This document shows, in pieces, positions 37,965 through 60,848 of a stretch of DNA of 64,000 bases. The stretch is from IMG/VR virus record IMGVR_UViG_3300027586_000004, positions 1 to 64,000 of that record. One strand, 5' to 3'. The notes below the pieces were generated by a model that made no database searches, was not told the DNA's origin, and saw nothing but the letters and a program-made list of their open reading frames with translations. Each line of letters opens with the position of its first letter. Position 1 is the first letter of the stretch. Source of the DNA: a virus. Position numbers and translations under genes: made by a program.

Positions 37965-38171
37965 ATGCACATTGTAAGCGATTTTTGGTGGGTTTGGCTG
38001 TCGGTTTTTGTCCTTTCCGGGGCTTATATTTTACATGCAAGGAAAAAGGCCGCCGAGGGAGTTCAGGCACAGTTCGTCTTGACGGGGTGCCTTCTCATCG
38101 TCTTCTATTCGGTATGCTTCTTTTCGGGCATCTGTACAATCTTGAACTTTATTTGGAGATGGATTCTTTAA
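37965..38171 (+). CDS. Small two-TM membrane protein
   Basis: GGAGG RBS; two hydrophobic helices; TAATG overlap with the next gene. Confidence 0.65.
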   Translation: MHIVSDFWWVWLSVFVLSGAYILHARKKAAEGVQAQFVLTGCLLIVFYSVCFFSGICTILNFIWRWIL

Positions 38172-39550
38172 TGTCAAGGTTGATTTGCATATCAGGGAAT
38201 TCGGGCGTGGGAAAAACCACGATTGCACAAATATTCAGATATTTTTTGGGGAGCAAAAATTGTTTGGCAATAAGTGGGGACGATCTTCATAGGTGGGAAA
38301 GGGGGAATGAGGCTTGGAAGACCATCACGCACCTAAATCCAGAAGCAAATGATTTAGATTTGGGCTACAAGCATATTGTTGACCTGAAAAGGGGCAAGTC
38401 CATTACAAGGTCAATATACAATCACGATACGGGAAAATTTGACGACCCCTCTGTTTTTGATTCAAAGCCATGGATAATTTACGAAGGGCTTCATGCTCTT
38501 TACCATGAGCCGACACACAGAAAAGCTTTCATGAAAATATTCATAGATGCCGAGGAGGATTTGAAAAATGAATGGAAAATCAAAAGGGACACAATAAAAA
38601 GAAAATACAAAAAAGAAGAAGTTGTAAAGCAAATAGAAAGAAGGAAGGCTGACGAGCGATTTATATTTGAACAGAAAAAAAATGCGGATGTATTGATTAA
38701 ACTCGAAAAGTCAAAAGTTATAAATCTTCATTACAAGTGTACTGATCCTAATCACGAGCGAATTATGAAGTTCATTGTGGACTTTTATTACTCCATATTT
38801 GATTACCTTGACATTTCTTCTCGTTTGTCTATGGATTCAAATTTAATTCAATTCAAAGGAGGAAATATATCGGTAAAATCAAACGGAAAGATAATTGTAA
38901 AGACTTCGGGACAAAAAATTTCCGAGACAAATTTATCCAGCGGAATATCCATATGTGAAATAAGCAAGGGAAAATTCCAAAATGAAAAGCAGTACTCTGA
39001 ATACATTTCTAGAATAAATACTTCAGAAAAAAATCCATCTTTGGAAAGTGGATTTCACATAAAATTGAACAACAAGTATGTAATTCATACACATCCCATT
39101 CACTTGAATGCAATATTGTGCAGTAATGAATCAAGGGCGATAATAAAAGGAATGTTTAAAAACATGCCCTATCAGTTTGTTGAATACAAAACTCCTGGGG
39201 TTGATCTGTGCAATGCGATAGATCCAAATCCGCATGGAAATAATATTTTTTTCTTACAAAACCACGGACTCATAGTTGGATCTAACGACAAAAAAAGTGC
39301 AATGGAAATAACGACAAAAATAAACGAAAGGTGCAAGCGTTGGATCGGGGATCATGCCGAAAAATTCATAGACCTTCACAGAGCCAACAAGCGTCCTCTT
39401 TTTCCTGATGCCGTGATGTTCAAAGAAATGGAAGAGGTCAACAACATAATACTATATCTTATGGAGACTTCTTGTCTAACCCCAAATTTTCTTGATAAAA
39501 ATGAAATCAAACTAATAAAAATCTCTAGCCTAGAGAAGATCAGAAAATAA
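38171..39550 (+). CDS. Phosphoribulokinase/uridine kinase-like domain fused to a class II aldolase-like domain
   Basis: GNSGVGKT, DDLHRWER and EGLH; then GGNIS, PSLE..FH, HTHP and LQNHG. Confidence 0.85.
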   Translation: MSRLICISGNSGVGKTTIAQIFRYFLGSKNCLAISGDDLHRWERGNEAWKTITHLNPEANDLDLGYKHIVDLKRGKSITRSIYNHDTGKFDDPSVFDSKPWIIYEGLHALYHEPTHRKAFMKIFIDAEEDLKNEWKIKRDTIKRKYKKEEVVKQIERRKADERFIFEQKKNADVLIKLEKSKVINLHYKCTDPNHERIMKFIVDFYYSIFDYLDISSRLSMDSNLIQFKGGNISVKSNGKIIVKTSGQKISETNLSSGISICEISKGKFQNEKQYSEYISRINTSEKNPSLESGFHIKLNNKYVIHTHPIHLNAILCSNESRAIIKGMFKNMPYQFVEYKTPGVDLCNAIDPNPHGNNIFFLQNHGLIVGSNDKKSAMEITTKINERCKRWIGDHAEKFIDLHRANKRPLFPDAVMFKEMEEVNNIILYLMETSCLTPNFLDKNEIKLIKISSLEKIRK

Positions 39551-39991
39551 CCTCTTGCACTCTAATGGAAAATCAGAACATACGCCATAAAAACCATATT
39601 TGTCAAAGTCAATCAGCGATTCCTTCGACAGCAAAGGTATTACGAACTTGCTGTTCATTACTGTAAGATCGTGAGCCCATACATATCCGTTGCTTATCAA
39701 GACATAGGGGTCGGACTCGTGGAAGAAAAAAACCAAATCTGATCCTAGAATCCATTCCAGAGCCGTTCTCTCTTTCACATGAATCCAAAGATTATTTCTT
39801 CTTTCGCGAAGCCATTCTTTTGAAACGGGGTGGTCGGCAGTATCATGTCCTAGATGCGGGGTTCCACCTTTAATTCGCAGATCAATCTCCACATCAAACC
39901 CCATATCCAAAGCCTTTTGAATGTGTTCGGGCGAGTTTTCAAAAAAATTTTCGGGTCCGTTTATATTTCCTCTATGGGATATTATTTTCAT
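39530..39991 (-). CDS. Glycerophosphodiester phosphodiesterase-like protein
   Basis: ISHRGN, EN, DVEIDL, LGHD and GVCSD motifs. Confidence 0.8.
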   Translation of the reverse strand: MKIISHRGNINGPENFFENSPEHIQKALDMGFDVEIDLRIKGGTPHLGHDTADHPVSKEWLRERRNNLWIHVKERTALEWILGSDLVFFFHESDPYVLISNGYVWAHDLTVMNSKFVIPLLSKESLIDFDKYGFYGVCSDFPLECKRLFSDLL

Positions 39992-40286
39992 TGAAATCCT
40001 CAATTCTAAATGTCTTGTCGTCTATGAAAATGTCGTAATAGGGCTTATTGCACCAGACTTCATGACTTTTTACTCCCCATGACAAAAGTTGTGCCTTCGT
40101 GAACTCTGTCCAGTCTGTTCCCGTTCTACTTCCTCTTGCTGTCCAATATATAATTTTATGTCCCCGGTCATAAAGTTTGTTCATTTTATTGATGTTGTCC
40201 ATGATTGGAGCTGACTTGTGATAATCTCTAGGGTTGTCTGGAGTAACACAAATCGTTTCGTCTATGTCTACAAAAATTACTTTCAT
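39972..40286 (-). CDS. Minimal HAD-family phosphatase
   Basis: DIDETI, WTARG and KP...FIDDK motifs. Confidence 0.85.
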   Translation of the reverse strand: MKVIFVDIDETICVTPDNPRDYHKSAPIMDNINKMNKLYDRGHKIIYWTARGSRTGTDWTEFTKAQLLSWGVKSHEVWCNKPYYDIFIDDKTFRIEDFNENNIP

Positions 40287-41122
40287 TTGACTTTACCTGT
40301 TGCGTGGTAGGTTTTCCAATAGTTGTAACAGTTGGCCACATCTTCTGCATTTTTGATTTGGCCTCCTCTCAACAGATGGGACCAACTTTCAAAATTCTCA
40401 ACCTCTTCTGGGGTTCCAAAAACTGTCACAAATGGCGTGTCAAAATAACCAACTCTTAAACCATCTTGTATTAGCAAATTGTAAACTAATGTTACATAAC
40501 ATTCGCCATTATAATTTAAATCTTTCTCTAGAGCCAAATCAAAGTATTTTTTAAGTATCGCTCCGTTTTTGAAATGATATATTCCCGTTGATGCGTGCTC
40601 TTGGGTTGGTTTGTCGGTGTAGGACTGCTTTTCTTTGATCTCCATAATCAACGGATATTCATTGTGTTCCTTTACGAATGCCATTTTTGTGGAGGCAAGA
40701 GCGTGTGGATGGAATCCAGTGTGAGTAAGAATGCATCCGTCCATTTTGTGATTTTTCACATGTGATTGAAAATTTTGTCTATTCAATATGCATGGATTGT
40801 CACAATACGATACGACAACCTCTTCGTCATCTCCTATAAATTCATACGCACTTTTAACGGTATAGACTGGTCCTTTTTTGTGCTGTGGCATGGAAACGAT
40901 CTTTGAGTTTGGAACTAAATCCAAAAGAACATTTTTCACTTCTGTGTTTCTTACATGATTGTCGTTGCATATGAAAACAAAATCATCACTTGTTACGTCA
41001 AACATTTCAAGTATGTATTCTATTATTCTTTTTCCATTTACTCTTATAAGTGGCTTCGGATCTTTGTAGTTTTTTTCTACAAATCTGTTGCCTGTGCCGG
41101 CCATGGGTATGACAACTTTCAT
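40283..41122 (-). CDS. Sugar-phosphate nucleotidyltransferase
   Basis: IPMAGTGNRF...PKPLI, YCD, EK and FGTPEE motifs. Confidence 0.9.
   Translation of the reverse strand: MKVVIPMAGTGNRFVEKNYKDPKPLIRVNGKRIIEYILEMFDVTSDDFVFICNDNHVRNTEVKNVLLDLVPNSKIVSMPQHKKGPVYTVKSAYEFIGDDEEVVVSYCDNPCILNRQNFQSHVKNHKMDGCILTHTGFHPHALASTKMAFVKEHNEYPLIMEIKEKQSYTDKPTQEHASTGIYHFKNGAILKKYFDLALEKDLNYNGECYVTLVYNLLIQDGLRVGYFDTPFVTVFGTPEEVENFESWSHLLRGGQIKNAEDVANCYNYWKTYHATGKVK
40968..41064 (+). repeat. 97-bp direct repeat A, copy 1 (inside the nucleotidyltransferase gene)
   Basis: Matches 46977-47073 with one mismatch. Confidence 0.95.
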
Positions 41123-41225
41123 AAAAACTCCTTTTGCTCATTTGTCAAATTAGCAGAGTTCCAAACTGGGTTTAGCGTCTGTTGTTGTAGTTGTAGGTGT
41201 TGTTGTAGGTGTGGACGGGATTCCG

Positions 41226-41401
41226 ATAGTAATCCTTTACTTTTGTCTCTGTCAATATTTACGATCAAAAATTTTTATTTGATTTTGTTTTGGATAAATT
41301 GTCAAATCAAGTCAAGTCAACATGCCGACAATTGGAAGGTATCCATAGGTCTGTACGAGTTTTATGGCTTGGGCATATATACAATTCCTGGAGGTAGAGA
41401 T
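41226..41401 (+). repeat. ~175-bp direct repeat B, copy 1 (divergent promoter/RBS module)
   Basis: Highly similar to 47867-48047, with scattered substitutions and one small indel. Confidence 0.93.
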
Positions 41402-42554
41402 GCACAATCCTAGAATTATTTTTTCAATTCCAGCTCATGAGTGTTTTGAGTGTTTGGAAAAACAAATTGAAAATTTGATACTAAAAGTTCCCAATAGTTT
41501 TATTGTAATTTTTTTATCAGCCAACAACAATTTCCATCTAAATAAAAACTCCTTTTCTGGGTACGAGGATAAAGTTTTTTTAAATCCAGATTCAAAGCCT
41601 ACATTCTGGCCGGATTGTTATTATCAGCACTATTCCAATTATAAGTTCATAAAAGACAAATTAGATTTTGATTATTGGTGTTTTGAAGCTAGCAATTCTA
41701 TTTTAATAAAGGATGGTCTCAATGAATATTTGACTAAATATGACGCTTTGGCGAAGTCTGATAGGCTTTTTGGACCTACGCCGAATCAGACGAACTTCAG
41801 ATCAATTTTAAAAGCAGAGAATTGGAATAGTTGGTGGAATAGATTACCTAAAGATGAAAGATTCATGAAACTTGTAAAAGATAACAAGTTTGAAATGTAT
41901 AATGGCTTTACTGAAGGAATGGTTTTTAACAAACACATATTGTCAGAAATTTTTGATATTTTAGATTTTTATGAATGCAATGACTATAGAACTGACAATC
42001 CAAATTATTACCCTAGGGATGAGCTGTATTTTACTACTGTATTTTTCAGCAAATTTTCAGATTCAAAACATAACCACAATTATTGCAATGTAAATTTGAA
42101 TGTTGATAATATAGAATTTACGATGAAATCATTTGAAGGATTTTATGCGGTAAAGCCCTGTCCGAGGGATGTGGACTCTAAAATTCATCTAATGCTATAT
42201 GAAATGGCGGATGTTGGATTCGAAAAATACTTTTACAAGAAAAAAAACTATCAAATTGGTCAAAAAAAATTCTTTTTCACAAATGATTTTTTGGTAGGAA
42301 AAATATTTGAATACATGAACAAAAAAGAAAAACTAGGTGAAGTTAAATTTCTTCCGGGTGGAGAGATTGGTTTGTTTGATCGCAAAAATGAAACAAGATG
42401 GAAAATAGATGAACTTGGTGATTTGTATTTTTTGGACAACGATGGAGTGATAACGACTATATTCTATGCCAAAAAAGACCAGTTTTTTTATGGAGATTTT
42501 TGGCATAAAGGATTGAAAGAAGGTTACCAATGGCATATGTTGAAATCACATTGA
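41400..42554 (+). CDS. Glycosyltransferase-like protein
   Basis: IIFSIPAHE N-terminus, YPRDE.YF motif; GGAGG RBS; AT-rich. Confidence 0.55.
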   Translation: MHNPRIIFSIPAHECFECLEKQIENLILKVPNSFIVIFLSANNNFHLNKNSFSGYEDKVFLNPDSKPTFWPDCYYQHYSNYKFIKDKLDFDYWCFEASNSILIKDGLNEYLTKYDALAKSDRLFGPTPNQTNFRSILKAENWNSWWNRLPKDERFMKLVKDNKFEMYNGFTEGMVFNKHILSEIFDILDFYECNDYRTDNPNYYPRDELYFTTVFFSKFSDSKHNHNYCNVNLNVDNIEFTMKSFEGFYAVKPCPRDVDSKIHLMLYEMADVGFEKYFYKKKNYQIGQKKFFFTNDFLVGKIFEYMNKKEKLGEVKFLPGGEIGLFDRKNETRWKIDELGDLYFLDNDGVITTIFYAKKDQFFYGDFWHKGLKEGYQWHMLKSH

Positions 42555-42633
42555 AATTTATCAAACATGCCCCGTCCTGACAGGTTCGAGCGCGATATAT
42601 ATCTTTCTTAAATTTTGACACTTTTATATAATT

Positions 42634-43695
42634 ATGATCAACTTTACATTTTGTGTTCTAGCTTGTGCCAAAAACGAAAAATACGCAAATAGATTAAAAG
42701 ATTTTATAGACTCATATGGCTATAAAAATCTAAATAAGGAAATAAAAATAAAATTTGTTTACCTGGTGGAGGACGAAGATAAGCCATCTTTCATGAGCGA
42801 CGAATCAGTGTGGTTTAAGTGTGCTGGGATGCCGATGAGCTGCAGGTTTTTGAAATATATCAAAGAAGTAAACGACGACTCCGAATGGGTTATGCAAGTA
42901 GATGATGATTCTAGTACCGACATAGACAAAACTGTTGAATTTTTGAATCAATACTACAACCATCAAGATTCAATGATGTTGATGGGAGGAAGAAACACAG
43001 ATTTAGAACGTGTTCAACAAGCAATTGTCAGAACTATGAATGTTGGCAACTTCTTTTTTGGATCTAACGACATTTCAAAATTTGATACCCATCCGTTTTT
43101 TGTTCACGCATGGGAGCCGACAATAATATCAAAAGCCGCGGTCAAGGTTATTAAGCAGTGGTCAAGACTGAACGAGTATTTTGATTTGTGTTTGAAAAAC
43201 AGACCTACATTCGGAGACCAAACGCCTTATGTTGCCGCAAAACTAGCAAAAGTTCCGATTGTAGAGTGCTCCTTCATGTCGCCTTTTAACAAACACATGG
43301 AATACAGCGCAATTAATTCAGGCGGTAGGTACTCACACATACATTATGTTACTGACAAGTGGAGTGGGTATAGTGACTTCAAGAATAAAATGATACGAGT
43401 TAAAAGAGGAGAGATACTAGATAAACCGCAACCTGCAAAAGAAGATTTGTGGCAATTTTTTGGTGGTACAAAAGGAAAGGAATCTTTTTATGGAAATTTT
43501 AAGTTAAACGATGATGGAACTTTAGGAATTTACAACAATGATAACGAGTTTTTCTGGGAGCGGGATGGCGATAAGATAGTTTTTCTAAACACAAGAAAAG
43601 AAAAAACATGTATTTTGAGCAAAATAAATGAAAATGAATATTCAGGAGAGTTTTTGCTAAATAAGAGTGTAAATCACAAGATAATAAAAACATGA
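42634..43695 (+). CDS. Glycosyltransferase-like protein (Fringe/GT31-like)
   Basis: WVMQVDDDS motif, IISKAA and GD motifs. Confidence 0.6.
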   Translation: MINFTFCVLACAKNEKYANRLKDFIDSYGYKNLNKEIKIKFVYLVEDEDKPSFMSDESVWFKCAGMPMSCRFLKYIKEVNDDSEWVMQVDDDSSTDIDKTVEFLNQYYNHQDSMMLMGGRNTDLERVQQAIVRTMNVGNFFFGSNDISKFDTHPFFVHAWEPTIISKAAVKVIKQWSRLNEYFDLCLKNRPTFGDQTPYVAAKLAKVPIVECSFMSPFNKHMEYSAINSGGRYSHIHYVTDKWSGYSDFKNKMIRVKRGEILDKPQPAKEDLWQFFGGTKGKESFYGNFKLNDDGTLGIYNNDNEFFWERDGDKIVFLNTRKEKTCILSKINENEYSGEFLLNKSVNHKIIKT

Positions 43696-44804
43696 GACTA
43701 TTTGAAACAATGCCAGGACTTGCATACTCTGCGGTTGATGTCAGATGCTTATCTCATGATGGGTGCATTGTGGATTTAGGTTGTCTTTTTTGGGATTGGT
43801 CTAGATTCTTTATTGGCAAAAAAAGGGTAATAGGAGTTGATCCATATGAAAAAGAGATAGAAGGAACAGAATTGTACAAAGGAATTGTTTGCGATGAAAC
43901 TAATAAAGTTAGCATGTCAAATAACGGCGTTTCTTCAAGCGTTTTTAATGGAGGCGATGATTTAGTTAATGCTTTAAGTTGGTCAGATTTTTGTAAAAAA
44001 TTCAATGTAGAAAAAATATCAGTATTGAAAATAAATATTGAAGGTTCTGAATATAGATTGTTGCGGGCAATGAGTCAAGAAGATTTTGAAAAAATAGATC
44101 AGATAGCAGTAAGTTTTCATGATTGGATGAATCCGTCTTGGCGAAAAGATACTTTGGAATGCCTAAAAATTTTGGAAAAAAACGATTTTTCATTCGTAAA
44201 AATACATGAGCCTTATGGTTGGTATTTGGCAATAAAGAATAAGGAAATGAACGTGGACATAATTTTGGAAGCGTTGAAAAACAATTGGTTGTTTCGTAGA
44301 AAAATTCAAATCAAACATCCTGATATGTCAGGGGAACTCTATAGGCATTTCATGGGATTTTCCTGCGACTTGTCTGCCATTAAAAAATTGATTGACGAAA
44401 ATCAATATGAAATTCAAGAATTGTACACAGATTGTTGTTTGTCAATTCTTGTTGGAAAATGGAATCCTGAACGAATAGCAGAAAATAAAATATCTGATAA
44501 TAGGTCTGAATTACTTTACGAAATAGATTCAGACGCATCGGTCAATGTTGCAAAAATATTTTTCAAACATGCTTCTGGTGGCCATAGGCTTGACGTCTAT
44601 CGAGTCGCAATTGAACATGAAGGCAAGGTCATATCCGAAGATGAACACCACGGATACGCGGGTTTAGGAGAAGACAAAAATTATTACAAAGTTGATTTTA
44701 AAGGCTTAAAAAATGTTACTTGTAGAGTTTGTTGCAACGCAATTATAGATGGAAATAAATTAGATGGATTTGGAAACATTTATTTTGCCAAATGGAGCAA
44801 TTAA
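43692..44804 (+). CDS. FkbM-like SAM methyltransferase with C-terminal extension
   Basis: VDLG, GVDP, LKINIEGSEY and QIAVSFH motifs. Confidence 0.75.
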   Translation: MRLFETMPGLAYSAVDVRCLSHDGCIVDLGCLFWDWSRFFIGKKRVIGVDPYEKEIEGTELYKGIVCDETNKVSMSNNGVSSSVFNGGDDLVNALSWSDFCKKFNVEKISVLKINIEGSEYRLLRAMSQEDFEKIDQIAVSFHDWMNPSWRKDTLECLKILEKNDFSFVKIHEPYGWYLAIKNKEMNVDIILEALKNNWLFRRKIQIKHPDMSGELYRHFMGFSCDLSAIKKLIDENQYEIQELYTDCCLSILVGKWNPERIAENKISDNRSELLYEIDSDASVNVAKIFFKHASGGHRLDVYRVAIEHEGKVISEDEHHGYAGLGEDKNYYKVDFKGLKNVTCRVCCNAIIDGNKLDGFGNIYFAKWSN

Positions 44805-45484
44805 TGATAATACATCAAATTTGGCTAGGTGATGCTGATAGAATTTTAAATCGCGACAAAATACTTATTGAGCAAAACAAAATATTTTGTGATCATTATT
44901 CGCATCATTACATATTTTGGTCTTATGACAAAATAGAGAAAGAACTTCTTCCCAATTTGATTTCAAATGAAAACATTGCCTTGTTGAGAAAGAAGTACTC
45001 AGAAATAAAAAGAAAAAAGTGCTACTCTGCATTTGTAGACATATTTAAAATAGCTGTGGTGTATTTTTATGGAGGAATGTATATTGATACAGATTATGAA
45101 ATCATCACTAATGACTTCGCTAAAGATGTTCAACAAAGATGCGGACTTGACAAAATAGGAATAGTTCAGCATTATAATTGGGGCATCTATGCGGCAGGCT
45201 TGTACTACGCAGAATCAACTTTTCAAAATGAACACGTTAAAAACTTCATATATGGTTTGTTTGATTATTTCTTGTCATTGAAAGATATTAATGATGTGAA
45301 TGTCGCGCTCACGGGTCCCGAGGGGATCAACAAAGTCATAAAAACGCATGAAGTGCCTCATGTTTCTCTTGGGAAAAAATACATGTCAATGCCCTATGGT
45401 GCGAATCCTGAAGACGACGGTTCTTGGATGGTTCCTTATAAAGACGCTTATCTCGTCCATTACTGGTCGGCCAGTTGGCATTAA
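44804..45484 (+). CDS. Glycosyltransferase, GT32 (DXD sugar-binding) family
   Basis: IHQIWLG, D..K....Y.YGGMYIDTD, TGP and HYWSASW motifs. Confidence 0.85.
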   Translation: MIIHQIWLGDADRILNRDKILIEQNKIFCDHYSHHYIFWSYDKIEKELLPNLISNENIALLRKKYSEIKRKKCYSAFVDIFKIAVVYFYGGMYIDTDYEIITNDFAKDVQQRCGLDKIGIVQHYNWGIYAAGLYYAESTFQNEHVKNFIYGLFDYFLSLKDINDVNVALTGPEGINKVIKTHEVPHVSLGKKYMSMPYGANPEDDGSWMVPYKDAYLVHYWSASWH

Positions 45485-46976: not shown

Positions 46977-47073
46977 CATATGAAAACAAAATCATCACTT
47001 GTTACGTCAAACATTTCAAGTATGTATTCTATTATTCTTTTTCCATTTGCTCTTATAAGTGGCTTCGGATCTT
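46977..47073 (+). repeat. 97-bp direct repeat A, copy 2 (orphan nucleotidyltransferase fragment)
   Basis: Matches 40968-41064 with one mismatch; no start or stop context. Confidence 0.95.
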
Positions 47074-47079
47074 ATATAA

Positions 47080-47799
47080 TCATATTTCATTAATCCAATT
47101 CTTTCTAGTAGCAACTCCAATACCCAAATAAGATCCATTTACACTATCATATTGATCAGTAAACTCGTAAAAATCATGAGTATCCACATAACATTCTTTT
47201 ACTTCGTTCCACCATTGTGTTACTCCAGGACAAGCATCACTTAAAATATCATGAAAAACTTGTATGTTACATTTATCTTTTGTTATTATTGAATCATTTT
47301 TAACTCCATCATAACTATGATCTCCATCAATAAAAATTAAATCAAAAAAATTACTTTCAATATATTTTTTAAATTCACTTGATGAAGAATTTATTTTTTT
47401 AAAAGAAGCATTATCATTAAATTCTACATATTCTTGCAATAGATTACATGAATCAATAATGTCTACAGAAACAGATTCACTAAAGTTAAAATTTAATCTA
47501 TTAAGATATTCTGTGGTTAATATAAAAGTACCACCAAATCTACATCCAATTTCCAAATAAGAATTTATTTTTTTAGATGACAAGTATTTTAAATATTTTG
47601 AAAATTGATTTGGATATTGCCAGATACGTAAACCAAATCCTTTACCATAATAATCATATAATTCTTTAGGTTGTTCAGATAAAAGTTCATTATTCAACCC
47701 AAATTTTAAGATTAATTCATTTTCTATAAATGATTCATCTTTGAGTTTTTTTATAGTTATTTTTTCAAAATAACTCCTAACTTCATTAAATATTACCAT
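47080..47799 (-). CDS. Class I SAM-dependent methyltransferase (Methyltransf_24-like)
   Basis: YLEIGCRFGGT, FIDGDHSY and FHDI motifs; extremely AT-rich. Confidence 0.85.
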   Translation of the reverse strand: MVIFNEVRSYFEKITIKKLKDESFIENELILKFGLNNELLSEQPKELYDYYGKGFGLRIWQYPNQFSKYLKYLSSKKINSYLEIGCRFGGTFILTTEYLNRLNFNFSESVSVDIIDSCNLLQEYVEFNDNASFKKINSSSSEFKKYIESNFFDLIFIDGDHSYDGVKNDSIITKDKCNIQVFHDILSDACPGVTQWWNEVKECYVDTHDFYEFTDQYDSVNGSYLGIGVATRKNWINEI

Positions 47800-47866
47800 T
47801 TAAAATCTCCACCATATTCTGAACTTCTTTCAAAAATATTCGCCAAAATAAACCAAAATAAATTTC

Positions 47867-48047
47867 ATAGTAATCCTTTACTTTTGTCTATATTCTGTCA
47901 ATATTTACGATCAAAAATTTTTATTTTATGTTGTTTTGGATAAATTGTCAAATCAAGTCAAGTCAACATGCCGACAATTGAAAGGTATCTGTAGGTCTGG
48001 ACGAGCTTTATGGCTTGGGCATATATACAATTCCCGGAGGTAGAGAT
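47867..48047 (+). repeat. ~180-bp direct repeat B, copy 2
   Basis: Similar to 41226-41401. Confidence 0.93.
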
Positions 48048-53008: not shown

Positions 53009-53375
53009 TGATATACATTGTTTCAGGGGGATCCTTGAAAACGAGCCTCATGTACCCGCATACCCAAGCCTTTCTCCTTTGAGGCCCAGAAGTTATCTCG
53101 TACATCCAGCCATCCATGAACTTCTCAAGATAACTTGCGGAAGCGTCGCATTCCAACGAGGGTTCATGGGAGAATTGCAGCATGAAGTCTCCATCAATGC
53201 CCTTTCTTTTTGCGCCCTCTATAAGAAAGGAATCTACGCCGGTGACATTGGGCGGAAGAACCATGCGGACGAAATCGGGAGGCGAAAGATCGTATGTCCA
53301 ACCTCCGTAATCCAGAAAGAGTTTTCCTTTTCTCTTGATAACCTTGAATTTCAATGATTTTTCAGGAATATTCAT
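52995..53375 (-). CDS. Hypothetical protein
   Basis: ORF ending WVCGY...FKDPPETMYI. Confidence 0.65.
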   Translation of the reverse strand: MNIPEKSLKFKVIKRKGKLFLDYGGWTYDLSPPDFVRMVLPPNVTGVDSFLIEGAKRKGIDGDFMLQFSHEPSLECDASASYLEKFMDGWMYEITSGPQRRKAWVCGYMRLVFKDPPETMYITIDP

Positions 53376-54105
53376 GGACGAAAAGTTCCTTAAAAAGCAA
53401 CTCCACATACGGACTTATGGAAGAGCGGTAGTAGACCTTGTCAAAATCCAAGGAATCTAGGTCTCCAAAAATGCGAGACATCCAGGGAGAAAGCACGGCG
53501 TAGAAAGGAGAAACCTCTCCGGTTCCTATCCATGTTTTCATCTTATCCATGTTCAGTTCCATGGGTTTAAATTCTAAAAGGCTCCTTTTTTCAAAAAATT
53601 CATATGTCGCCTTTATTTCGGAAATTATCTTGGATGATTTCGTTGAAATGTCAGATTCCTTCGAAGTCAAAACCCGCTCAAGTTTTCTTCTGTACCTGTA
53701 CCGCCAGAGTTTCCATCTCTTCCATGCCTTCTCACCCACAAGGCAGTGGGGTTCTATGAGGGCGTGAACCTCTCCCTCCTTGATTGCCTTCAAAATCTGA
53801 AGTTGAGCACGGATGTATAGGCATATCTCATTGTCTTGCAAGATTCCTTTCATTTCTTTTGCAAGTTTATAGCAGTACTTAAAAAGCGTGGACTTTCTGG
53901 GGTCTGTATTGGCCTTGAGCTTGACAAACTGCTCTTTTGGCAGTTCCCTTCTGCACTCATCCTGCCATATGAGGGCTATCTTGTAGGCCTTGGCCTCCAA
54001 GTCCGTCATCTTGTACTTAATTATAAGCTCAAGTTCCTTCATTTTTTCTCTATTGCAGAAGTTTTCAAGTCTAGTTATGATTCCAGCATGCGAAAGATCA
54101 TCCAC
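53362..54105 (-). CDS. Hypothetical basic helical protein (start may be 54042)
   Basis: 247-aa ORF divergent from the structured intergenic element. Confidence 0.75.
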   Translation of the reverse strand: MDDLSHAGIITRLENFCNREKMKELELIIKYKMTDLEAKAYKIALIWQDECRRELPKEQFVKLKANTDPRKSTLFKYCYKLAKEMKGILQDNEICLYIRAQLQILKAIKEGEVHALIEPHCLVGEKAWKRWKLWRYRYRRKLERVLTSKESDISTKSSKIISEIKATYEFFEKRSLLEFKPMELNMDKMKTWIGTGEVSPFYAVLSPWMSRIFGDLDSLDFDKVYYRSSISPYVELLFKELFVHEYS

Positions 54106-54133
54106 TAACTATCATAACCTAATAACCTGAAAC

Positions 54134-54540
54134 TTTCAACGTTTTCGTGGGATGAAATTTCGCAAGAGTAAATGTTTGGCATTCCCGTATTTCGGTACGG
54201 GCGGCCGGGTTAAAAACTCCCCGGCAGTTCGAAGCCTTGCGCTGAGACGCGTGTATGACTGAGGGGCTGAATCGTTTGGATGAAAGACTTTTATTGTAGT
54301 GAGAGCTGCATTTTTCCGTGTAACCCGATACTAGTTGATGTATCACGGGGCCTGGGTCACGGTCCGCAATGGAGACAGATCAAAAAGTCAGTTTAGTCCG
54401 GATAGAGGAACGGTAAAGGTATAGCCAGACAGCGGTATTGTTGAACTCAAAAAGAAGGCAAGGATATAAGAACTAGGCAATTGGATCACTCTAATTAACT
54501 AGTTCTTATATAAGGGTCTCCTGAGGGAAGGCCCCCTTTC
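54134..54540 (+). ncRNA. Putative large structured non-coding RNA or origin element
   Basis: No credible CDS; many nested helices with UUCG and GAGA tetraloops; G-U pairs work on the + strand; 13-bp perfect inverted repeat. Confidence 0.6.
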
Positions 54541-54566
54541 TAGACACACTAAATAAAGGAATATAA

Positions 54567-54776
54567 ATGAACGATAAAAGCAGAAGACTTGAGGATTTGA
54601 CTGGAAAGAGACTTAAGCCAAGGAAGGAGAACAACAGGAGGCTTCGCAGGAACATCAGAAGGATCGCAGAAAGAAAGGGAATAACCTACAAGGAGGCCAT
54701 ACTCAAGTTCTACAAGGTTCACAGCTATAAGGAACTAGATAAGAATCTTATTTATTCGCTTAACAAAGGCAAGTAA
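54567..54776 (+). CDS. Small Arg/Lys-rich protein
   Basis: AAGGA RBS; RKENNRRLRRNIRRIAERK. Confidence 0.65.
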   Translation: MNDKSRRLEDLTGKRLKPRKENNRRLRRNIRRIAERKGITYKEAILKFYKVHSYKELDKNLIYSLNKGK

Positions 54777-54788
54777 ATCTGTTAGAAT
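54760..54788 (+). promoter_or_regulatory. Sigma70-like promoter with extended -10, leaderless for the polymerase gene
   Basis: TTAACA-N17-TAGAAT with TG upstream, 7 nt before ATG 54796. Confidence 0.5.
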
Positions 54789-54795
54789 CTATTAG

Positions 54796-56103
54796 ATGAG
54801 CGTGTTTTCCGAAATACTCCCGAGGATAAAGGGGCAGGACGTATATTTATATCTCTCCAAGGAGAACCCGGATTGGCAAAACCACAAGCAGGATGTCAGC
54901 CTTGTGGTTCATTTCGGAGGCAAGAGGGTCACGCTCCCCCTAGGCGACTCTTCTGACCTTAACTACCTCGTCTCCTCGCTCTACCACTTCCTGGACAAGG
55001 ACAGGCTCGTTATTGCGTGGAGAGCCAAGGAAATCTTCTCCTACCTCAAGGGTCGTACGGAGATGAGCCTGGAAGTACATAACCAGGTCTATGACCTCTC
55101 CCTCATCTCGTCATATCTCGGATCATCCCCTTTGCGTCCCGAAAACTTCAGGGATGCGGTCTCGCTGCTGAAGAGGCTGATGTCCGATCCGCTCTGGAAG
55201 AAATTTTCACCATACTACTCCGCCATACAAGTTCCCATGTTATCGTCGATACTTCCCGAAATGGAGACGGGATGCATTGTCGATAACAAGAGGAAGAAGT
55301 GCGTGTATCCGACCTATGTGATGGAGGGCCAGGCCAACGGAAGACTCAGCACCACCAAGGTCAATTCGTCCTCCTACAACCCCCATTCCATAGGCAAGGA
55401 AGAGAAGTCGAATCTCCGTCCTAGTGGCTACGACGAGGCATTTGTCTGCTACGACTACAGGAACATGGAGGTGGCCGTCCTGCAGTGGCTGTCGGGCGAC
55501 CCAGCCCTGGCGTCAATCCTGGAATCGGGCAAGGATCTCTACAAGGAGATATGGCGTAAGATCACAAGGCAGGATCCCACCGACGCCCATAGAAAAATAT
55601 GCAAGAACACATTTCTTCCGGTCGTTTTCGGACAGGGCAAGGCGTCTCTGGCCAAAAATCTGGGATCATCGGAAAAAATTGCTGCCAAGCTCATAAATAG
55701 CCTCGTCGATACCTTTCCCGTTGCTTTCGACTGGGTCAATGCCCAGTCACCCGACAGCAACAACACGGCAACTGATGTTTTTGGCCGCAGAAGAACTTTT
55801 GACGGACACGAACTGTACAAAATTAAAAATTTTTGTATCCAGTCGCCAGCGAGCATGATTTGTTTGAGAAAACTTGTGAAATTGCACGATGCCCTGGCTA
55901 GTAAGGCCAGCATCGGTTTTCATGTGCATGACGGATATTGCGTAATTTGCCATAAAAAGAACCTTGTTTCCACCTGCGAACTCGGAGCGAGTGTCCTCGA
56001 GGAGGAGGATGAAATGTTCCCCGGCCTATTACTCAAGACCACATGCAAGTTCGGACAAAATCTCAATGATTTAGAAACTTTTACCAAGAGGATAAAGATA
56101 TGA
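54796..56103 (+). CDS. Short family-A DNA polymerase-like protein
   Basis: NGRLST, motif A DYRNMEVAVL, motif B RKICKNTFLPVVFG, IQS and motif C HVHDG; only 435 aa. Confidence 0.85.
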   Translation: MSVFSEILPRIKGQDVYLYLSKENPDWQNHKQDVSLVVHFGGKRVTLPLGDSSDLNYLVSSLYHFLDKDRLVIAWRAKEIFSYLKGRTEMSLEVHNQVYDLSLISSYLGSSPLRPENFRDAVSLLKRLMSDPLWKKFSPYYSAIQVPMLSSILPEMETGCIVDNKRKKCVYPTYVMEGQANGRLSTTKVNSSSYNPHSIGKEEKSNLRPSGYDEAFVCYDYRNMEVAVLQWLSGDPALASILESGKDLYKEIWRKITRQDPTDAHRKICKNTFLPVVFGQGKASLAKNLGSSEKIAAKLINSLVDTFPVAFDWVNAQSPDSNNTATDVFGRRRTFDGHELYKIKNFCIQSPASMICLRKLVKLHDALASKASIGFHVHDGYCVICHKKNLVSTCELGASVLEEEDEMFPGLLLKTTCKFGQNLNDLETFTKRIKI

Positions 56104-56657
56104 AGATGATTCAGGATTCCTTCCCCGTCACCGAAGAGGAGTATCTTCTTCTGGACGGCAAGTTCGGCGAACTCTGCGAATACCAGGCCTGGCAGCTTAT
56201 AAAAAAGAACACCAGGAACAACCACACGGACGCTCAGGAGGACATCGCGCAGGACATGCGGATCGCCCTCCTCCGCGCGGCCTCGTACTACAAGAGGCAG
56301 TGCTACATCGAGGAGTGCCTTGATAAATGCGAGAAGCATGTCAAGGACGCGGTAATCAAGAGCGTCCTGAAGCAGCTTCAGAACCTGTGGGAGAACAAGA
56401 CGAGGCACGGCGCGAACAAGCAGAAGTTCGGCCCGCATCAGGAAAAGATGCTTGAAAAGCTCGTAAAATCCCTCGTCCCTTCCAAGGAGAGGCCGAACAG
56501 GAAGGCTTCTTTGAGGATAGACACGAAGTTCATCACCTACTGCAAGGCGATAACATGGAATGCGCAAAAGTCGCTCGGCAAGAGGATAACTAGGGAGAAG
56601 TCAATCAGGACCGGGATGGTCTCCCTGTCCGAATACGACTACCTAGGCGGAAATTAA
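56100..56657 (+). CDS. Sigma-70 region-2-like transcription factor
   Basis: EDIAQDMRIALLRAA...KFITYCKAITWN...VSLSE resembles sigma region 2 with an insertion. Confidence 0.6.
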   Translation: MKMIQDSFPVTEEEYLLLDGKFGELCEYQAWQLIKKNTRNNHTDAQEDIAQDMRIALLRAASYYKRQCYIEECLDKCEKHVKDAVIKSVLKQLQNLWENKTRHGANKQKFGPHQEKMLEKLVKSLVPSKERPNRKASLRIDTKFITYCKAITWNAQKSLGKRITREKSIRTGMVSLSEYDYLGGN

Positions 56658-59215
56658 TGTCAAAAATCTGTGTTGTCCAATTTTATACTTCCAATGTTTC
56701 CTACGGTAGTTTTGCCGAGGAGATAAACAGAAAATATTGCGAAGCACAGGGATATGACTATTTCATTGAAAAGGATGACGAGAAGCTGAAATCTATGGCG
56801 GAAGGCCGGGCCTTCACATGGATAAAGCCTAAGTTGATAGGCGAGGTCATAGGCAAGTACGACCACGTCTTGTTCATGGATATTGACGCCATATTCTCCA
56901 ATCAAGAAATGAGGATAGAGGAGTTCTTAGATTCCGGCTACGATCTGATCGCCGCCGAAGACTACAGCCGTCATTCCAAGATGAATGCCGGGGTGCTACT
57001 TTTCAGCAATTCATCTTGGACTTCTGATTTTTTGAGAAAATGGTGGGAGTCAGGCGATAATTTGAAAGGTTCGGACATTGCTGAACTGGGAACAAACAAT
57101 GATCAGCCTGGGTATTTCAAGCATGGCTATTGGCATGATCAATCCTGCTTGTCTTATTTGTACTTGAATGGATATGGCGACCGCATCAAGGTAATCAGCA
57201 ACAGAAGTTTCAACTGGCGGGAATACAACCAAGACAATTTCATTTTTCACGCATTCGCCAGGGGGCACAGGCGAAACAGGTCTTTGGACACGATACACGC
57301 CAAAATTTTTGGCACAAAGATAAATCCGGAAGAGATGACGCTTGCGCAGTTGGCAGAGTTTTACGGCACCGATAAAGAGTATGAGCATCGCTATGTCACC
57401 AACCACTATGAAAGAATATTTGCGTTCTATAGAAAAAAGGCAAAAAGGTTTTGTGAGATAGGAATTGCAGACGGGGTTTCACTCATGATGTTCCGCGATT
57501 ATTTTTCTGAAGCCACTATAGTGGGATGCGATCTTGTGGACAAATCAATAGAAGAAGATAGGGTTTTCGTCGTAAAAATGAATCAGTCCGTAGATGCTGA
57601 AATTGATTCATTTTGTGAGTCACAGGATGACTTTGACATTATATTGGACGACGGATCGCACAAGATGAGGGATCAGCAGGTCACATTTTCAAAGCTTTTC
57701 AGAAAGCTCAATCCGGGCGGGCTGTTTATCATTGAGGATCTGCACACAAGCACGGAGGCCCGCATGCCCGAGAAATCTGTATACAACTGGGGCGATCCTG
57801 AAAAGACCACCACTTTGGAGATGTTGGAAAACTTCATGTCTTCCGGAAAAATAAAGTCCGACTACCTCACTGAAGAAGAATCCAGATATTTGGAGGAAAA
57901 CATAGAATCTTGTGAGGTTTTGAAAAAAGATAGTCATTACTTCAGCATAACTTCTGTTTTGAAGAAAAAGTCTATGTCTGTTGATTTTGACAAGACAAAG
58001 GCTTCCGAAAAAAATTTTGAAAAGCCAAAGATACTATTTCTTGCGTACACAAGCAAGAAATACAAGGGACATGGCATAGAAATTGATAGGTCTGATCTTA
58101 CAAGAAAAATGTCATGCATGGAGACATGGGTTCCTAGGATAGAGGCCCTAGGACATGAAGTTATTTTTTTTGATGGAGGAAATGACAATCAATTCTTTGA
58201 CAAAAAGAATAAAACACTGCATCTTATTTCAAATGAATCTTACGATTATCACCATCTCAAAGAAATTGGGTTTGGTTCTCTCATGCTAGAACGCTTAAAG
58301 GAGGCCATCTCCTGGTGTCTTGAAAACAGGGATTTTGATTACATATTCAGGACTGATGACGGCTCTTATCTGAATGCGTGGAAGTTGGGAGATTTTTTAG
58401 AAGAGCTGAAGAGCGAGCCAGGTGCGGTATTTTCTTCTGCGGGCGGAGGAGGTGCGGGCATTGCCTTTTCTAGAAAAACTTGTGAACTTTTGGCTTCATA
58501 TGAAAACAAATCAAAGATACACATAGAAGATGTTGCTATTTTTAAGTTTTTTACCGACCTAGGCATCAACGGGATTTCAAGTTCAATTCTTTGGCCCAAT
58601 TATGTTCTGGGAGAAAAATTCTTTAGTTTTCACTACACAAATGGAAAAAGACAGTACTTCGCAGACGATGTCATTTCTTACTACAACAATGGAATTCCCA
58701 TAAGAAGAAAAGTTATGATAAACTTTCCTTTTGACTTAATGGAAAATGAATTTCACTATTTGCCAATAAAAACATGGGATTTTGAGAATTCAGAAAAAAC
58801 TCCAATTTGGTATTCATTTGAAAAAGACGATCAAAATTGGGAGTATATTGGAAACTACGCCCGATCAGGCCTCTGTGTCAATCAACAATGCCCTTTTGGA
58901 ATCAAATCCATAAATGAACTTGCTTTTTGGAATGTAAGCTTTGATACTTCTTTAATTCATGAGGAAAGAATTTTCATGGATTATGTTGAATCCGTGATGG
59001 ACAAAGGAGTTTTGTATTTCAATCTTACTGAAGATTTCACTCAAAGGTTGGGCGAAAATACAAAGCCATTTGGATTCGCAGATGTGAACATTGAGAGTTA
59101 TATTGGTGGGGTTGAATCCTATATGGATGTTTTAGAAGTAGACCACAACTCGGACTTCAATCCCACATTCAAGCTTTCAGGCAAGGTTACAACAATAAAG
59201 GCCAAAAAAAGATGA
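56657..59215 (+). CDS. Three-domain glycan enzyme: GT34-like + sugar O-methyltransferase + GT31-like
   Basis: WIKP, FMDIDA, NAGV and HDQ; GTDK, EIG, DDGSH and IEDL; IFRTDDGSY, GGAG and IEDV. Confidence 0.8.
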   Translation: MSKICVVQFYTSNVSYGSFAEEINRKYCEAQGYDYFIEKDDEKLKSMAEGRAFTWIKPKLIGEVIGKYDHVLFMDIDAIFSNQEMRIEEFLDSGYDLIAAEDYSRHSKMNAGVLLFSNSSWTSDFLRKWWESGDNLKGSDIAELGTNNDQPGYFKHGYWHDQSCLSYLYLNGYGDRIKVISNRSFNWREYNQDNFIFHAFARGHRRNRSLDTIHAKIFGTKINPEEMTLAQLAEFYGTDKEYEHRYVTNHYERIFAFYRKKAKRFCEIGIADGVSLMMFRDYFSEATIVGCDLVDKSIEEDRVFVVKMNQSVDAEIDSFCESQDDFDIILDDGSHKMRDQQVTFSKLFRKLNPGGLFIIEDLHTSTEARMPEKSVYNWGDPEKTTTLEMLENFMSSGKIKSDYLTEEESRYLEENIESCEVLKKDSHYFSITSVLKKKSMSVDFDKTKASEKNFEKPKILFLAYTSKKYKGHGIEIDRSDLTRKMSCMETWVPRIEALGHEVIFFDGGNDNQFFDKKNKTLHLISNESYDYHHLKEIGFGSLMLERLKEAISWCLENRDFDYIFRTDDGSYLNAWKLGDFLEELKSEPGAVFSSAGGGGAGIAFSRKTCELLASYENKSKIHIEDVAIFKFFTDLGINGISSSILWPNYVLGEKFFSFHYTNGKRQYFADDVISYYNNGIPIRRKVMINFPFDLMENEFHYLPIKTWDFENSEKTPIWYSFEKDDQNWEYIGNYARSGLCVNQQCPFGIKSINELAFWNVSFDTSLIHEERIFMDYVESVMDKGVLYFNLTEDFTQRLGENTKPFGFADVNIESYIGGVESYMDVLEVDHNSDFNPTFKLSGKVTTIKAKKR

Positions 59216-60183
59216 TGGCTATTGTATTTTATTGCTTTATGATCAATGACTGGGAGCCACGATTCCTCAGGCAGATCAAAAGAATATTGTCTTCGGGACT
59301 CTATGAAGAAGCCGTTGAAATTCATCTTTTTGCTTGTGATACAACCGATGAAAAAAAAATCAATCTAGATCGGATAATTTGTGATTTACCAAAAATAGAA
59401 TTGCACTATACAAACATTAATCACGGGGGGGAATATCTTGCCTTGCTGAAGATAGACGAATTCAGAAATAAAAGTAACTTCAAAATACTTTACTTTCACA
59501 CTAAAGGAGTTTACAACAAATATAAGAATTTTGTAACCAATGAATTGGATAATTTGAAAATAGAATCTATAAATTGTTGGGTGGAAATGATGGAGTACTT
59601 TTTATTGGACAATTGGAAATCTTGCTCCGGAAAACTTGGAGAATATGATACGGTGGGGGTTTCTAACTTTAATGGGTGGTGGTGGGGCAATTTTTGGTGG
59701 ACTACATCGGAACACATAAGGAACTTGGCACCCCTCGGTCAGTACTACCACGACAGATGGTCTGCGGAGGCTTGGTTGCACGATTCGCATTCTGACAAAC
59801 AAGCCATCAAGTTTTATGAATTCAAACGCATGGAATACGATCCCCATTATTCGCGACTGCCCAAGTACTTGTATGACGGAACAAATGTCAAGGGCATCAA
59901 GTTTGAGATAGATGAGGCAAAATATGGCTGGTTTTCAGAACAGAGAGACGAAGGCTCCCCTTTTTTGTCCAATTCGTCAATTATAGAAGATGTGACTGAA
60001 AGAGTTCGTGAAATCATCATGCAAAATAATGGAAAAGTAGAAATTATGCCTATTATGTTTATGGGTGTGAGAGATGTTGCCCCCGGGCGAGAGAAAATAC
60101 TCAGGATAAAGTTCAGAACGAATATAGACCCAGAGAACGAATATGTTATATCTTCTTTTAGAGACTGGAAAATAACACTATGA
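59212..60183 (+). CDS. Glycosyltransferase-like protein with C-terminal lectin-like domain
   Basis: ILYFHTKG, GNFWW and AE.W motifs; C-terminal AKYG...DVT...DVAPGREK.L. Confidence 0.6.
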   Translation: MMAIVFYCFMINDWEPRFLRQIKRILSSGLYEEAVEIHLFACDTTDEKKINLDRIICDLPKIELHYTNINHGGEYLALLKIDEFRNKSNFKILYFHTKGVYNKYKNFVTNELDNLKIESINCWVEMMEYFLLDNWKSCSGKLGEYDTVGVSNFNGWWWGNFWWTTSEHIRNLAPLGQYYHDRWSAEAWLHDSHSDKQAIKFYEFKRMEYDPHYSRLPKYLYDGTNVKGIKFEIDEAKYGWFSEQRDEGSPFLSNSSIIEDVTERVREIIMQNNGKVEIMPIMFMGVRDVAPGREKILRIKFRTNIDPENEYVISSFRDWKITL

Positions 60184-60848
60184 GACTAAGTGAAATTGCA
60201 AAAAAATACCCGACCGACAAGGACTTCACCCACAACTATTACGAGACAGCATACGAGTCTGCTTTGAGTTCTATAAGAGAAGGGGTCAAGTTTGTCTGTG
60301 AGATAGGCATAGGGGGCTTCTGGAATGAAGCGGGATGGGTTCACGGAAACTCTCTCAAGGTTTGGAGGGACTACTTTCCGAACGCCGATATTCTTGGATT
60401 GGACATAAAAGAATATCAGATAGAAGACCTGGGCAGAATAAGGACGGGCTGGCTGGATCAGTCCAAGAAGGATCTGGTGGTGGATTACGCGTCAAAACTG
60501 AAGGACTACGATCTGATAGTGGACGACGGATCGCACAATATATACGACCAGCAGATCACGCTGGCCTATTTTTTCAAATGCCTCAAGCCGGGGGGCATAT
60601 ACATACTGGAAGACCTCCACAGCAGCATAGAGGTCAATGACCTTGAGAAGGCGAAGTTATGGGGCTGGGGAGAGGCCGGGCACATAACTCCGCTTCAGAT
60701 GCTGGAGCATCATATCGGCACCAAAGAAATAATCAGCGATTATTTGGATGAGGGCGAAAAGCAGTATCTGGAGCAGAGCATAGACAAAATAGAGGTGTTT
60801 CACATAGGGCCCACTAGCATCACATCAATAATTAGAAAGAAGATTTGA
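60180..60848 (+). CDS. SAM-dependent (sugar O-) methyltransferase
   Basis: TDK..H.Y, EIGIG, WRDYFP, DDGSH and PGGIYILEDL motifs. Confidence 0.85.
   Translation: MRLSEIAKKYPTDKDFTHNYYETAYESALSSIREGVKFVCEIGIGGFWNEAGWVHGNSLKVWRDYFPNADILGLDIKEYQIEDLGRIRTGWLDQSKKDLVVDYASKLKDYDLIVDDGSHNIYDQQITLAYFFKCLKPGGIYILEDLHSSIEVNDLEKAKLWGWGEAGHITPLQMLEHHIGTKEIISDYLDEGEKQYLEQSIDKIEVFHIGPTSITSIIRKKI

Follow-up and report, generated by a model that had tools for sequence, protein, structure and literature searches.

The window analyzed in this study, a stretch of 64,000 nucleotides (nt), comprises the first 64 kb of a 94,843-bp virus record of the IMG/VR database (IMGVR_UViG_3300027586_000004; G+C content 48%) and harbors, upstream of a gene encoding a family-A DNA polymerase (PolA), a large structured non-coding RNA that had been proposed in an initial annotation made from the DNA letters alone. 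The record has a CheckV completeness of 16% and its gene content includes a tail sheath, a sheath stabilizer, a ribonucleotide reductase, an SbcC-like nuclease and a helicase; considering both the low completeness and the gene content, it is a fragment of a very large myophage of roughly 0.5 Mb. Four related records of 99-127 kb are 18-25% complete, and homologues of two local proteins were found on contigs of 480-620 kb.

The RNA is located between p226 (53362..54042, minus strand), the divergent gene of an all-helical protein of 226 amino acids (aa) and unknown fold, and p69 (54567..54776, plus strand), which encodes an Arg/Lys-rich protein of 69 aa and is followed on the same strand by the 435-aa PolA (54796..56103; Pfam DNA_pol_A, 2e-25). 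The start codon of p226 is most likely the ATG at 54042 rather than the GTG at 54105, because the former yields the 226 aa of the relatives and the N-terminus M-x-E-L-E shared with them. The gap without open reading frames (ORFs) noted in the initial annotation does exist, but its true length is 524 nt (54043-54566) instead of ~460 nt, as the divergent gene starts later. The gene order p137(-), p226(-), RNA, p69, PolA and p185 is invariant across the RNA-bearing loci, with the RNA on the same strand as p69, PolA and p185, the RNA being syntenic in relatives.

Fold, covariation and strand of the RNA

The structured core of the RNA, supported by two covariance models (R1 and R2), pair counts, RNAalifold and folds of individual sequences, spans ~260 nt of the plus strand (54173..54431), is closed by helix P1 and has at least eleven helices, namely P1, H2, H3, P4, P5c, H5, P6, P7, H8 (with a GNRA loop), P9/P9a, P9b and H10. 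The sequences quoted in the initial annotation were all found at the positions assigned to them, and nearly all of the helices recognized there by eye proved to be real: the single-sequence minimum free energy (MFE) fold recovers most of them and the homologues share the architecture. Helices H3 (54204-25), P6 (54275-81/54396-402), P7 (54286-92/54383-89), H8 (54296-309), P9 (54316-20/54358-62) and P9b (54327-44) are common to the homologues, and P1 (54173-80/54424-31) and H2 (54184-201), which are not part of the counted model R2 and were assessed visually, differ in sequence between clades while keeping their complementarity. To these we added P4 (54227-30/54408-11), P5c (54233-36/54265-68), H5 (54239-52) and H10 (54363-73), whereas the outermost pair TTCAAC/GTTGAA had to be abandoned, being mismatched in the homologous locus L031 and deleted in L001. 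Two further pairings were rejected, one between CCGUG and CACGG at 54344-48, since CCGUG covaries only with 54358-62, and the other a long-range pairing proposed by RNAalifold between GGGGCU and the C-run of a downstream hairpin (box 4, described below), which showed no covariation by eye. The core strands UGUAACC.GA and GGG....GGGUCAYGGUC are near-invariant, and the junction nucleotides of the core remain so even where polymerase identity is only 42-46%.

Covariation was assessed by building R2 on a manual structure and then using it to realign 17 copies, resulting in an alignment (A6) of 17 sequences and 51 pairs. In A6, 88.2% of the cells pair, compared to 74.2% after shuffling and 36-50% once the 3' partners have been shifted (slid) by 1-3 columns, the paired fraction being inflated because A6 was fitted to the structure. 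Changes on both sides were observed in 36 of the 51 pairs, and the covariation score (0.435, against 0.07-0.12 for slid partners) was reached by none of 500 shuffles. Independently, RNAalifold applied to a plain MAFFT alignment of nine sequences detected compensatory changes in 19 of 35 pairs; this result and the slid controls indicate that the covariation signal is real. Folds of individual sequences showed the same architecture in every clade. Taken together, the homologues, the covariation and the shared architecture confirm that the stretch preceding PolA encodes a large structured non-coding RNA, and both covariation and synteny, suggested beforehand as checks, were found in relatives. 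On the other hand, the folding energy lies within the range of shuffled sequences, a result that the initial annotation had named in advance as speaking against the element (whole gap, plus strand, z = -1.03, 17 of 100 shuffles as good; core, z = -0.41, 65 of 200; reverse strand, z = -0.44). Yet the covariation overrides this weak criterion, and a folding-energy z-score alone would have wrongly discarded a real RNA.

The RNA is encoded on the plus strand, on which the initial annotation had taken the many G-U pairs as a sign of RNA rather than DNA, because GNRA and UUCG loops are present on that strand in several clades (GAGA or GAAA in H8, UUCG in H2) and because G-U cells exceed A-C cells in the pairs (50 and 24, respectively), although the latter is modest evidence, the alignment having been fitted on the plus strand. 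Additionally, P1 varies within the clade of the window through G-U intermediates, which would be A-C mismatches on the opposite strand. A feature acting at the DNA level (for example, cruciforms or palindromes to which proteins bind), or the remnant of a gene in decay, in either case devoid of a functional RNA, would agree with the folding energies and with three elements outside the core that are described below, namely a long hairpin paired entirely by Watson-Crick pairs, the partly palindromic box 4, and box 1, which is best read as a DNA promoter. Nevertheless, such a feature is very unlikely, given the covariation of long-range nested helices, the excess of G-U pairs, the strand-specific tetraloops, a conservation far above that of the flanking proteins, and indels that are not multiples of three in a region lacking an open frame.

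Distribution of the RNA and its linkage to p69

Homologues were drawn from IMG/VR and from the metagenomes of the Joint Genome Institute (JGI). A search of IMG/VR with the polymerase yielded three syntenic loci, at 87, 59 and 46% identity, whose gaps align with near-invariant blocks, and further copies were retrieved by running a degenerate pattern, derived from the most conserved block, on IMG/VR and the JGI metagenomes. Model R1 set the true copies (86-211 bits) apart from chance pattern matches, R1 and R2 scores were 140-214 bits in most homologues, and searching with the 185-aa protein encoded downstream, which is very conserved, added loci L043 and L044. The RNA is present in 18 distinct phage contigs with a G+C content of 0.32-0.57, in a single copy per record. 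Pattern-scan matches in L012, L013, L016, L019, L020, L025, L030, L032 and L070 were judged to be due to chance, as was the only match obtained when 185,579 prokaryote species genomes were scanned, and a blastn search with the gap returned nothing from 50,697 phage records.

No known RNA family was matched by cmscan with Rfam 15, a search suggested in the initial annotation. Its 4227 models, which include RNase P, transfer-messenger RNA (tmRNA), signal recognition particle (SRP) RNA, 6S, group I/II introns, riboswitches, OLE, GOLLD, ROOL, HEARO and RNAI, returned nothing in the whole window at the gathering score and only microRNA, CRISPR-repeat and small nucleolar RNA noise on 651 nt at E<10, and eleven homologous loci gave no match at E<0.1 or E<5. 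ARAGORN detected neither tRNA nor tmRNA in the window or in eight homologous loci. Group I/II introns were not matched by their Rfam models, and the RNA is not an intron, since the gap is flanked by two complete, divergently oriented genes. These results agree with the earlier judgment that the element is not a tRNA, tmRNA, RNase P or intron. Some stretches look by eye like the domain IV motif of SRP RNA, the 5' end of tmRNA, the CR-I region of RNase P or the S element of group I introns, but these likenesses were discarded because the bases concerned lack conservation between clades or stand in a different pairing context. A literature search returned nothing relevant to the element. The RNA is thus previously unclassified, matching no described family, and its conservation extends over a clade of very large phages. 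It resembles OLE, GOLLD, ROOL, HEARO/omega RNA and raiA in being a large ornate RNA supported by covariation, of unknown role and found in phages and metagenomes, but it shows no model similarity to any of them and differs in size, gene neighbors and restriction to one clade of huge phages. Large ornate covarying RNAs of unknown function are rare and have repeatedly proved to be ribozymes, guide RNAs or unusual assemblies. Besides, the covariance model is now available to annotate a region left blank in the genomes of huge phages.

The protein p69 consists of an Arg-rich stretch followed by a conserved helical core, with the consensus RRNIRRxAxRKGI(T/S)YxEAIxKFY..DKNxxYSL. It is encoded in all 15 of 15 RNA loci, whereas a profile search of six-frame translations detected it in none of 13 related loci lacking the full RNA, and the nine IMG/VR contigs encoding p69 all hold the RNA as well. 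The protein has no match in Pfam or PHROG and no relative in PDB, and its 53 relatives, some of them on contigs of 480-490 kb, are all unnamed and without a Pfam domain. The basic peptide had been put forward as a partner of the RNA, to which it is indeed tied by this strict co-occurrence and which it may bind. The RNA and p69 constitute a two-part cassette between the 226-aa gene and the polymerase gene, and represent a compact and testable RNA-protein pair.

Such linkage to a small basic protein recalls RNase P RNA and its protein, and the RNA could be a stable trans-acting molecule, possibly processed from a leader, that would assemble with p69 into a ribonucleoprotein (RNP) and act as a ribozyme or scaffold on a host or phage target early in infection. 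Its size and complexity are ribozyme-like, its junctions are near-invariant despite the divergence of the polymerase, its GNRA loops suggest tertiary docking, and the long hairpin after the core, kept in all clades, could mark a 3' end; moreover, sister clades place unrelated content in the same slot, as expected of an exchangeable accessory cassette. However, the RNA has no similarity to known ribozyme or RNP RNAs, no target can be named, and neither a canonical terminator nor a second promoter was scored ahead of p69. We consider a trans-acting role possible rather than probable, though it is the strongest competitor of the cis-acting leader discussed below and ranks close to it; if the RNA acts in this manner, it would constitute a new phage RNP.

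Transcript and possible roles of the RNA

The promoters described here are consensus matches. A sigma-70-like promoter of the RNA (TTGCAG-17 nt-TATGAT; 54053-58 / 54076-81, plus strand) would initiate transcription near 54088. Each of 12 homologues (12 of 12) has on this strand a promoter of the form TTGNNN-16/17-TANNNT, mostly TTGCAR...TATGAT, at a distance of 7-14 nt from the p226 start codon; the promoter tool scored the copy in L002 and left unlisted that of the window, in which the -35 hexamer matches at only 3 of 6 positions. A facing sigma-70-like promoter (TTGAAA-17 nt-TATGAT; 54139-34 / 54116-11, minus strand) was detected by the promoter scan and coincides with box 1 (54111..54139), matching the consensus at 10 of 12 positions in the window and in L001 and at 9 of 12 in L002. 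Box 1 is probably conserved as DNA, and this minus-strand promoter explains it and presumably drives the 226-aa gene. Given that box 1 and box 4 occur only once each in the 95-kb record, they are not general phage promoters; boxes of the TATATAAG type were not enriched either (6 found against about 4 expected). The window contains, at 54053-54139, two conserved facing sigma-70-like promoters, each inside the transcript of the other. From the putative starts, the two transcripts would overlap by ~16 nt at their 5' ends, and the RNA and the 226-aa gene could interfere with each other's transcription.

Three structures lie outside the core, all read on the plus strand. A 5' stem that encloses box 1 (arms 54089-54103 and 54150-54164; inverted repeat I3, 15 nt, 87% complementary) is restricted to close relatives of the window, having been recognized by eye in L001 and not found in more distant clades. 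A long hairpin with a 13-bp outer stem and an inner stem (54464..54511) is present in every homologue with a different sequence, and the terminator scan did not score it as a canonical terminator in the window, L001, L002 or L014. The box 4 hairpin (54514..54536; GGG..YCC-loop-GGRA..CCC), conserved in all homologues, is located just 5' of the p69 ribosome-binding site; in the MFE fold of the window its 3' flank CCUUU pairs with AAAGG of that site, a pairing seen solely in the clade of the window and hence not a general feature. From 54088 to p69, neither a sigma-70 promoter nor a canonical terminator was scored in four genomes. Owing to this lack of a canonical terminator ahead of p69, the RNA is probably the ~480-nt structured 5' part of the p69 transcript, its extent beyond P1 being putative. 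Transcription of the polymerase gene may also begin separately, at a promoter-like site within the end of p69 (54760-54788).

We rank first, albeit tentatively and with less than even confidence, the explanation that the RNA is a cis-acting leader working with p69. This choice is based on where the RNA lies and on which strand, on the promoter conserved ahead of it, on the absence of a scored terminator between it and p69, and on the conserved hairpin next to the ribosome-binding site. The RNA would be transcribed rightward from the conserved sigma-70-type promoter, probably early and by the host polymerase, as the 5' part of a transcript also encoding p69. Either p69 or a small ligand, or the two together, could then bind the folded leader, which in its bound form would set the amount of transcription or translation entering p69 and subsequently the polymerase and 185-aa genes, with a mode of action similar to that of a long riboswitch, a T-box-type leader or the phage lambda N/nut antitermination pair. 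If the RNA regulates early replication genes in this way, it would be an unusually complex phage leader. Several points weigh against a cis-acting leader. We know of no riboswitch aptamer as big and ornate as this core, no conserved terminator/antiterminator or alternative sequestering the ribosome-binding site was found when the clades were compared, and the AT-rich clade has no Shine-Dalgarno sequence to sequester. In addition, the promoter-like site at the end of p69 suggests that the polymerase gene can be transcribed on its own, the strict linkage between the RNA and p69 suits a trans-acting RNP equally well, and the start and end of the transcript as well as co-transcription are themselves putative.

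Known leaders provide partial parallels. As in the lambda N/nut, HK022 put and EAR leader systems, an RNA stands at the start of an early operon, the gene of a small Arg-rich protein follows immediately on what would be a shared transcript, and a hairpin is located downstream. However, the RNA described here is multi-branched and exceeds theirs in size by a factor of 4-10, no relative of p69 was found in Pfam or PDB, and the downstream hairpin is not a canonical terminator. As for membership of the lambda N/nut group, no boxA/boxB was recognized and p69 has no Pfam or PHROG match, only its Arg-rich character and the gene order being alike. The translational operators of T4 genes 32 and 43 and the ribosomal-protein leaders share a structured 5' leader next to a ribosome-binding site, a replication gene and possible binding by a protein encoded downstream; nonetheless, those operators span 30-100 nt, whereas the core described here has ~260 nt and eleven or more helices. 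The polymerase, in turn, belongs to family A and not B. T-box and cobalamin leaders have in common with the RNA a multi-helix fold closed by P1, a 5' position on the same strand and conserved junction nucleotides, and differ from it in that here there is no Rfam match, no conserved expression platform or clue to a ligand that could be found, and a strict link to a protein gene.

Alternatively, the RNA might be a riboswitch-like sensor of a small molecule, for instance one that reports on nucleotide pools, and might control the early replication genes with no need for p69, since it occupies a 5' position on the strand of these genes and its conserved nucleotides cluster in junctions and internal loops of a P1-closed architecture followed by a hairpin. 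We regard such a sensor as improbable, as known aptamers are smaller and have fewer helices, no expression platform shared by the clades was found, the gene context suggests no ligand, and the strict co-occurrence of p69 would be left unexplained.

The initial annotation had put forward, as one candidate, an RNA-primed origin. At such an origin the RNA would serve as pre-primer, would persist as a hybrid and, in the manner of ColE1 RNA II, would be elongated by the family-A polymerase of the phage. The locus resembles the ColE1 system of RNA II, RNA I and Rom in its long folded RNA with a promoter of the constitutive, sigma-70 type, in an oppositely oriented promoter that faces the 5' end of this RNA, in the proximity of a gene for a small protein, and in having a family-A polymerase to compare. 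The conserved G-rich strand of the core and a conserved C-run ~170 nt downstream recall the G/C contacts of RNA II, and the slot of sister clades holds a second, compact family-A polymerase paralogue. However, no signature of an origin was found: the cumulative GC skew, proposed as a check for an inflection, rises through 54 kb without a turn (with about 16% of the genome in hand), and there are no iterons, repeat family or AT-rich unwinding element, the lowest nearby G+C content (0.35) being that of the promoters. Moreover, the same polymerase occurs in sister clades without the RNA, the RNA continues directly into the ribosome-binding site of an ORF, the facing promoter would drive a protein gene and give an overlap of only ~16 nt, p69 is Arg-rich, unlike Rom, and no sequence or model similarity to plasmid primer or antisense RNAs was detected in Rfam. 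A role in priming DNA replication is, accordingly, not supported by these results and still less probable than a small-molecule sensor.

Neighboring genes and the slot in sister clades

PolA and the divergent protein (53362-54105 in the initial annotation) had also been named as partners of the RNA, an association that turned out not to be specific. Both PolA and p226 are kept in the sister clades without the RNA (LR756511.1, L053, L057, L064 and L067), p185 also persists in sister clades of this kind, and a search of LR756511.1 with the RNA model returned nothing. Since both persist in these clades, PolA and p226 are neighbors and not obligate partners of the RNA. No sequence match in Pfam, PHROG or PDB was obtained for p226, and its AlphaFold2 model (predicted local distance difference test, pLDDT, 80) gave no convincing fold match, the best Foldseek E value being 0.95, with T4 gp59 at rank 15; its best VIA-align Z score (5.0) fell on AAA+ lid-like helices. 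The protein p185 (185 aa; 56100-56657 of the window), also without a sequence match in Pfam, PHROG or PDB, is 72-94% identical across loci in which the polymerase is only 42-60% identical.

In the sister clades, the slot occupied here by the cassette contains a weak shortened RNA, a different structured element, a protein with a family-A fold, or other ORFs. The shortened RNA (L052:2129-2294; 166 nt, 21 bits, E about 0.004 with filters off) keeps H3, P7, H8 and the strands of P9, lacks the P5/P6 region and is not followed by p69. A second conserved ORF-free element of ~300 nt occupies the same slot upstream of the polymerase gene in L053:2120-2420 and L057:2150-2450; its hairpins covary between both loci (e.g., GAUCU/AGAUC and GACGU/ACGUC), it matched neither R2 nor Rfam, and no p69 follows it. 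In L064:1483-2658, L067:1406-2659 and L040 (LR756511.1):2793-3956, a protein of 390-417 aa is encoded directly upstream of the polymerase gene. By its predicted fold, this protein is a compact family-A polymerase (pLDDT 89; Foldseek E 4e-6 to Bst Pol I). It has invariant GRxH, D..NSQP, K and HDS motifs, its motif C being HDS, as in T7-type RNA polymerases, and not HDE, and its 121 relatives, on contigs of 570-620 kb, are all unnamed and lack a Pfam domain. The 387-aa slot protein of LR756511.1 shows no similarity to p69.

We find conceivable, if somewhat doubtful, an extension of the trans-acting RNP: the RNA and p69 may form a new ribonucleoprotein of huge phages, whose ribozyme-sized RNA would be trans-acting, would be expressed early thanks to a promoter of host type, and would serve in catalysis or in the takeover of the host, outside the described classes of RNA. 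The slot may then be an exchange point, filled in sister clades by another large structured RNA, unrelated to the first, or by an additional family-A polymerase of compact size.

Further downstream in the window, an 852-aa protein (56657-59215) combines a glycosyltransferase-like N-terminus with a methyltransferase domain, and a 222-aa methyltransferase of the same PHROG (21658) is encoded two genes further (60180-60848). Additionally, the G+C content of 38000-45000 and 47000-48000 is 0.25-0.38, far under the record average of 0.48, which suggests that these blocks are acquired segments.

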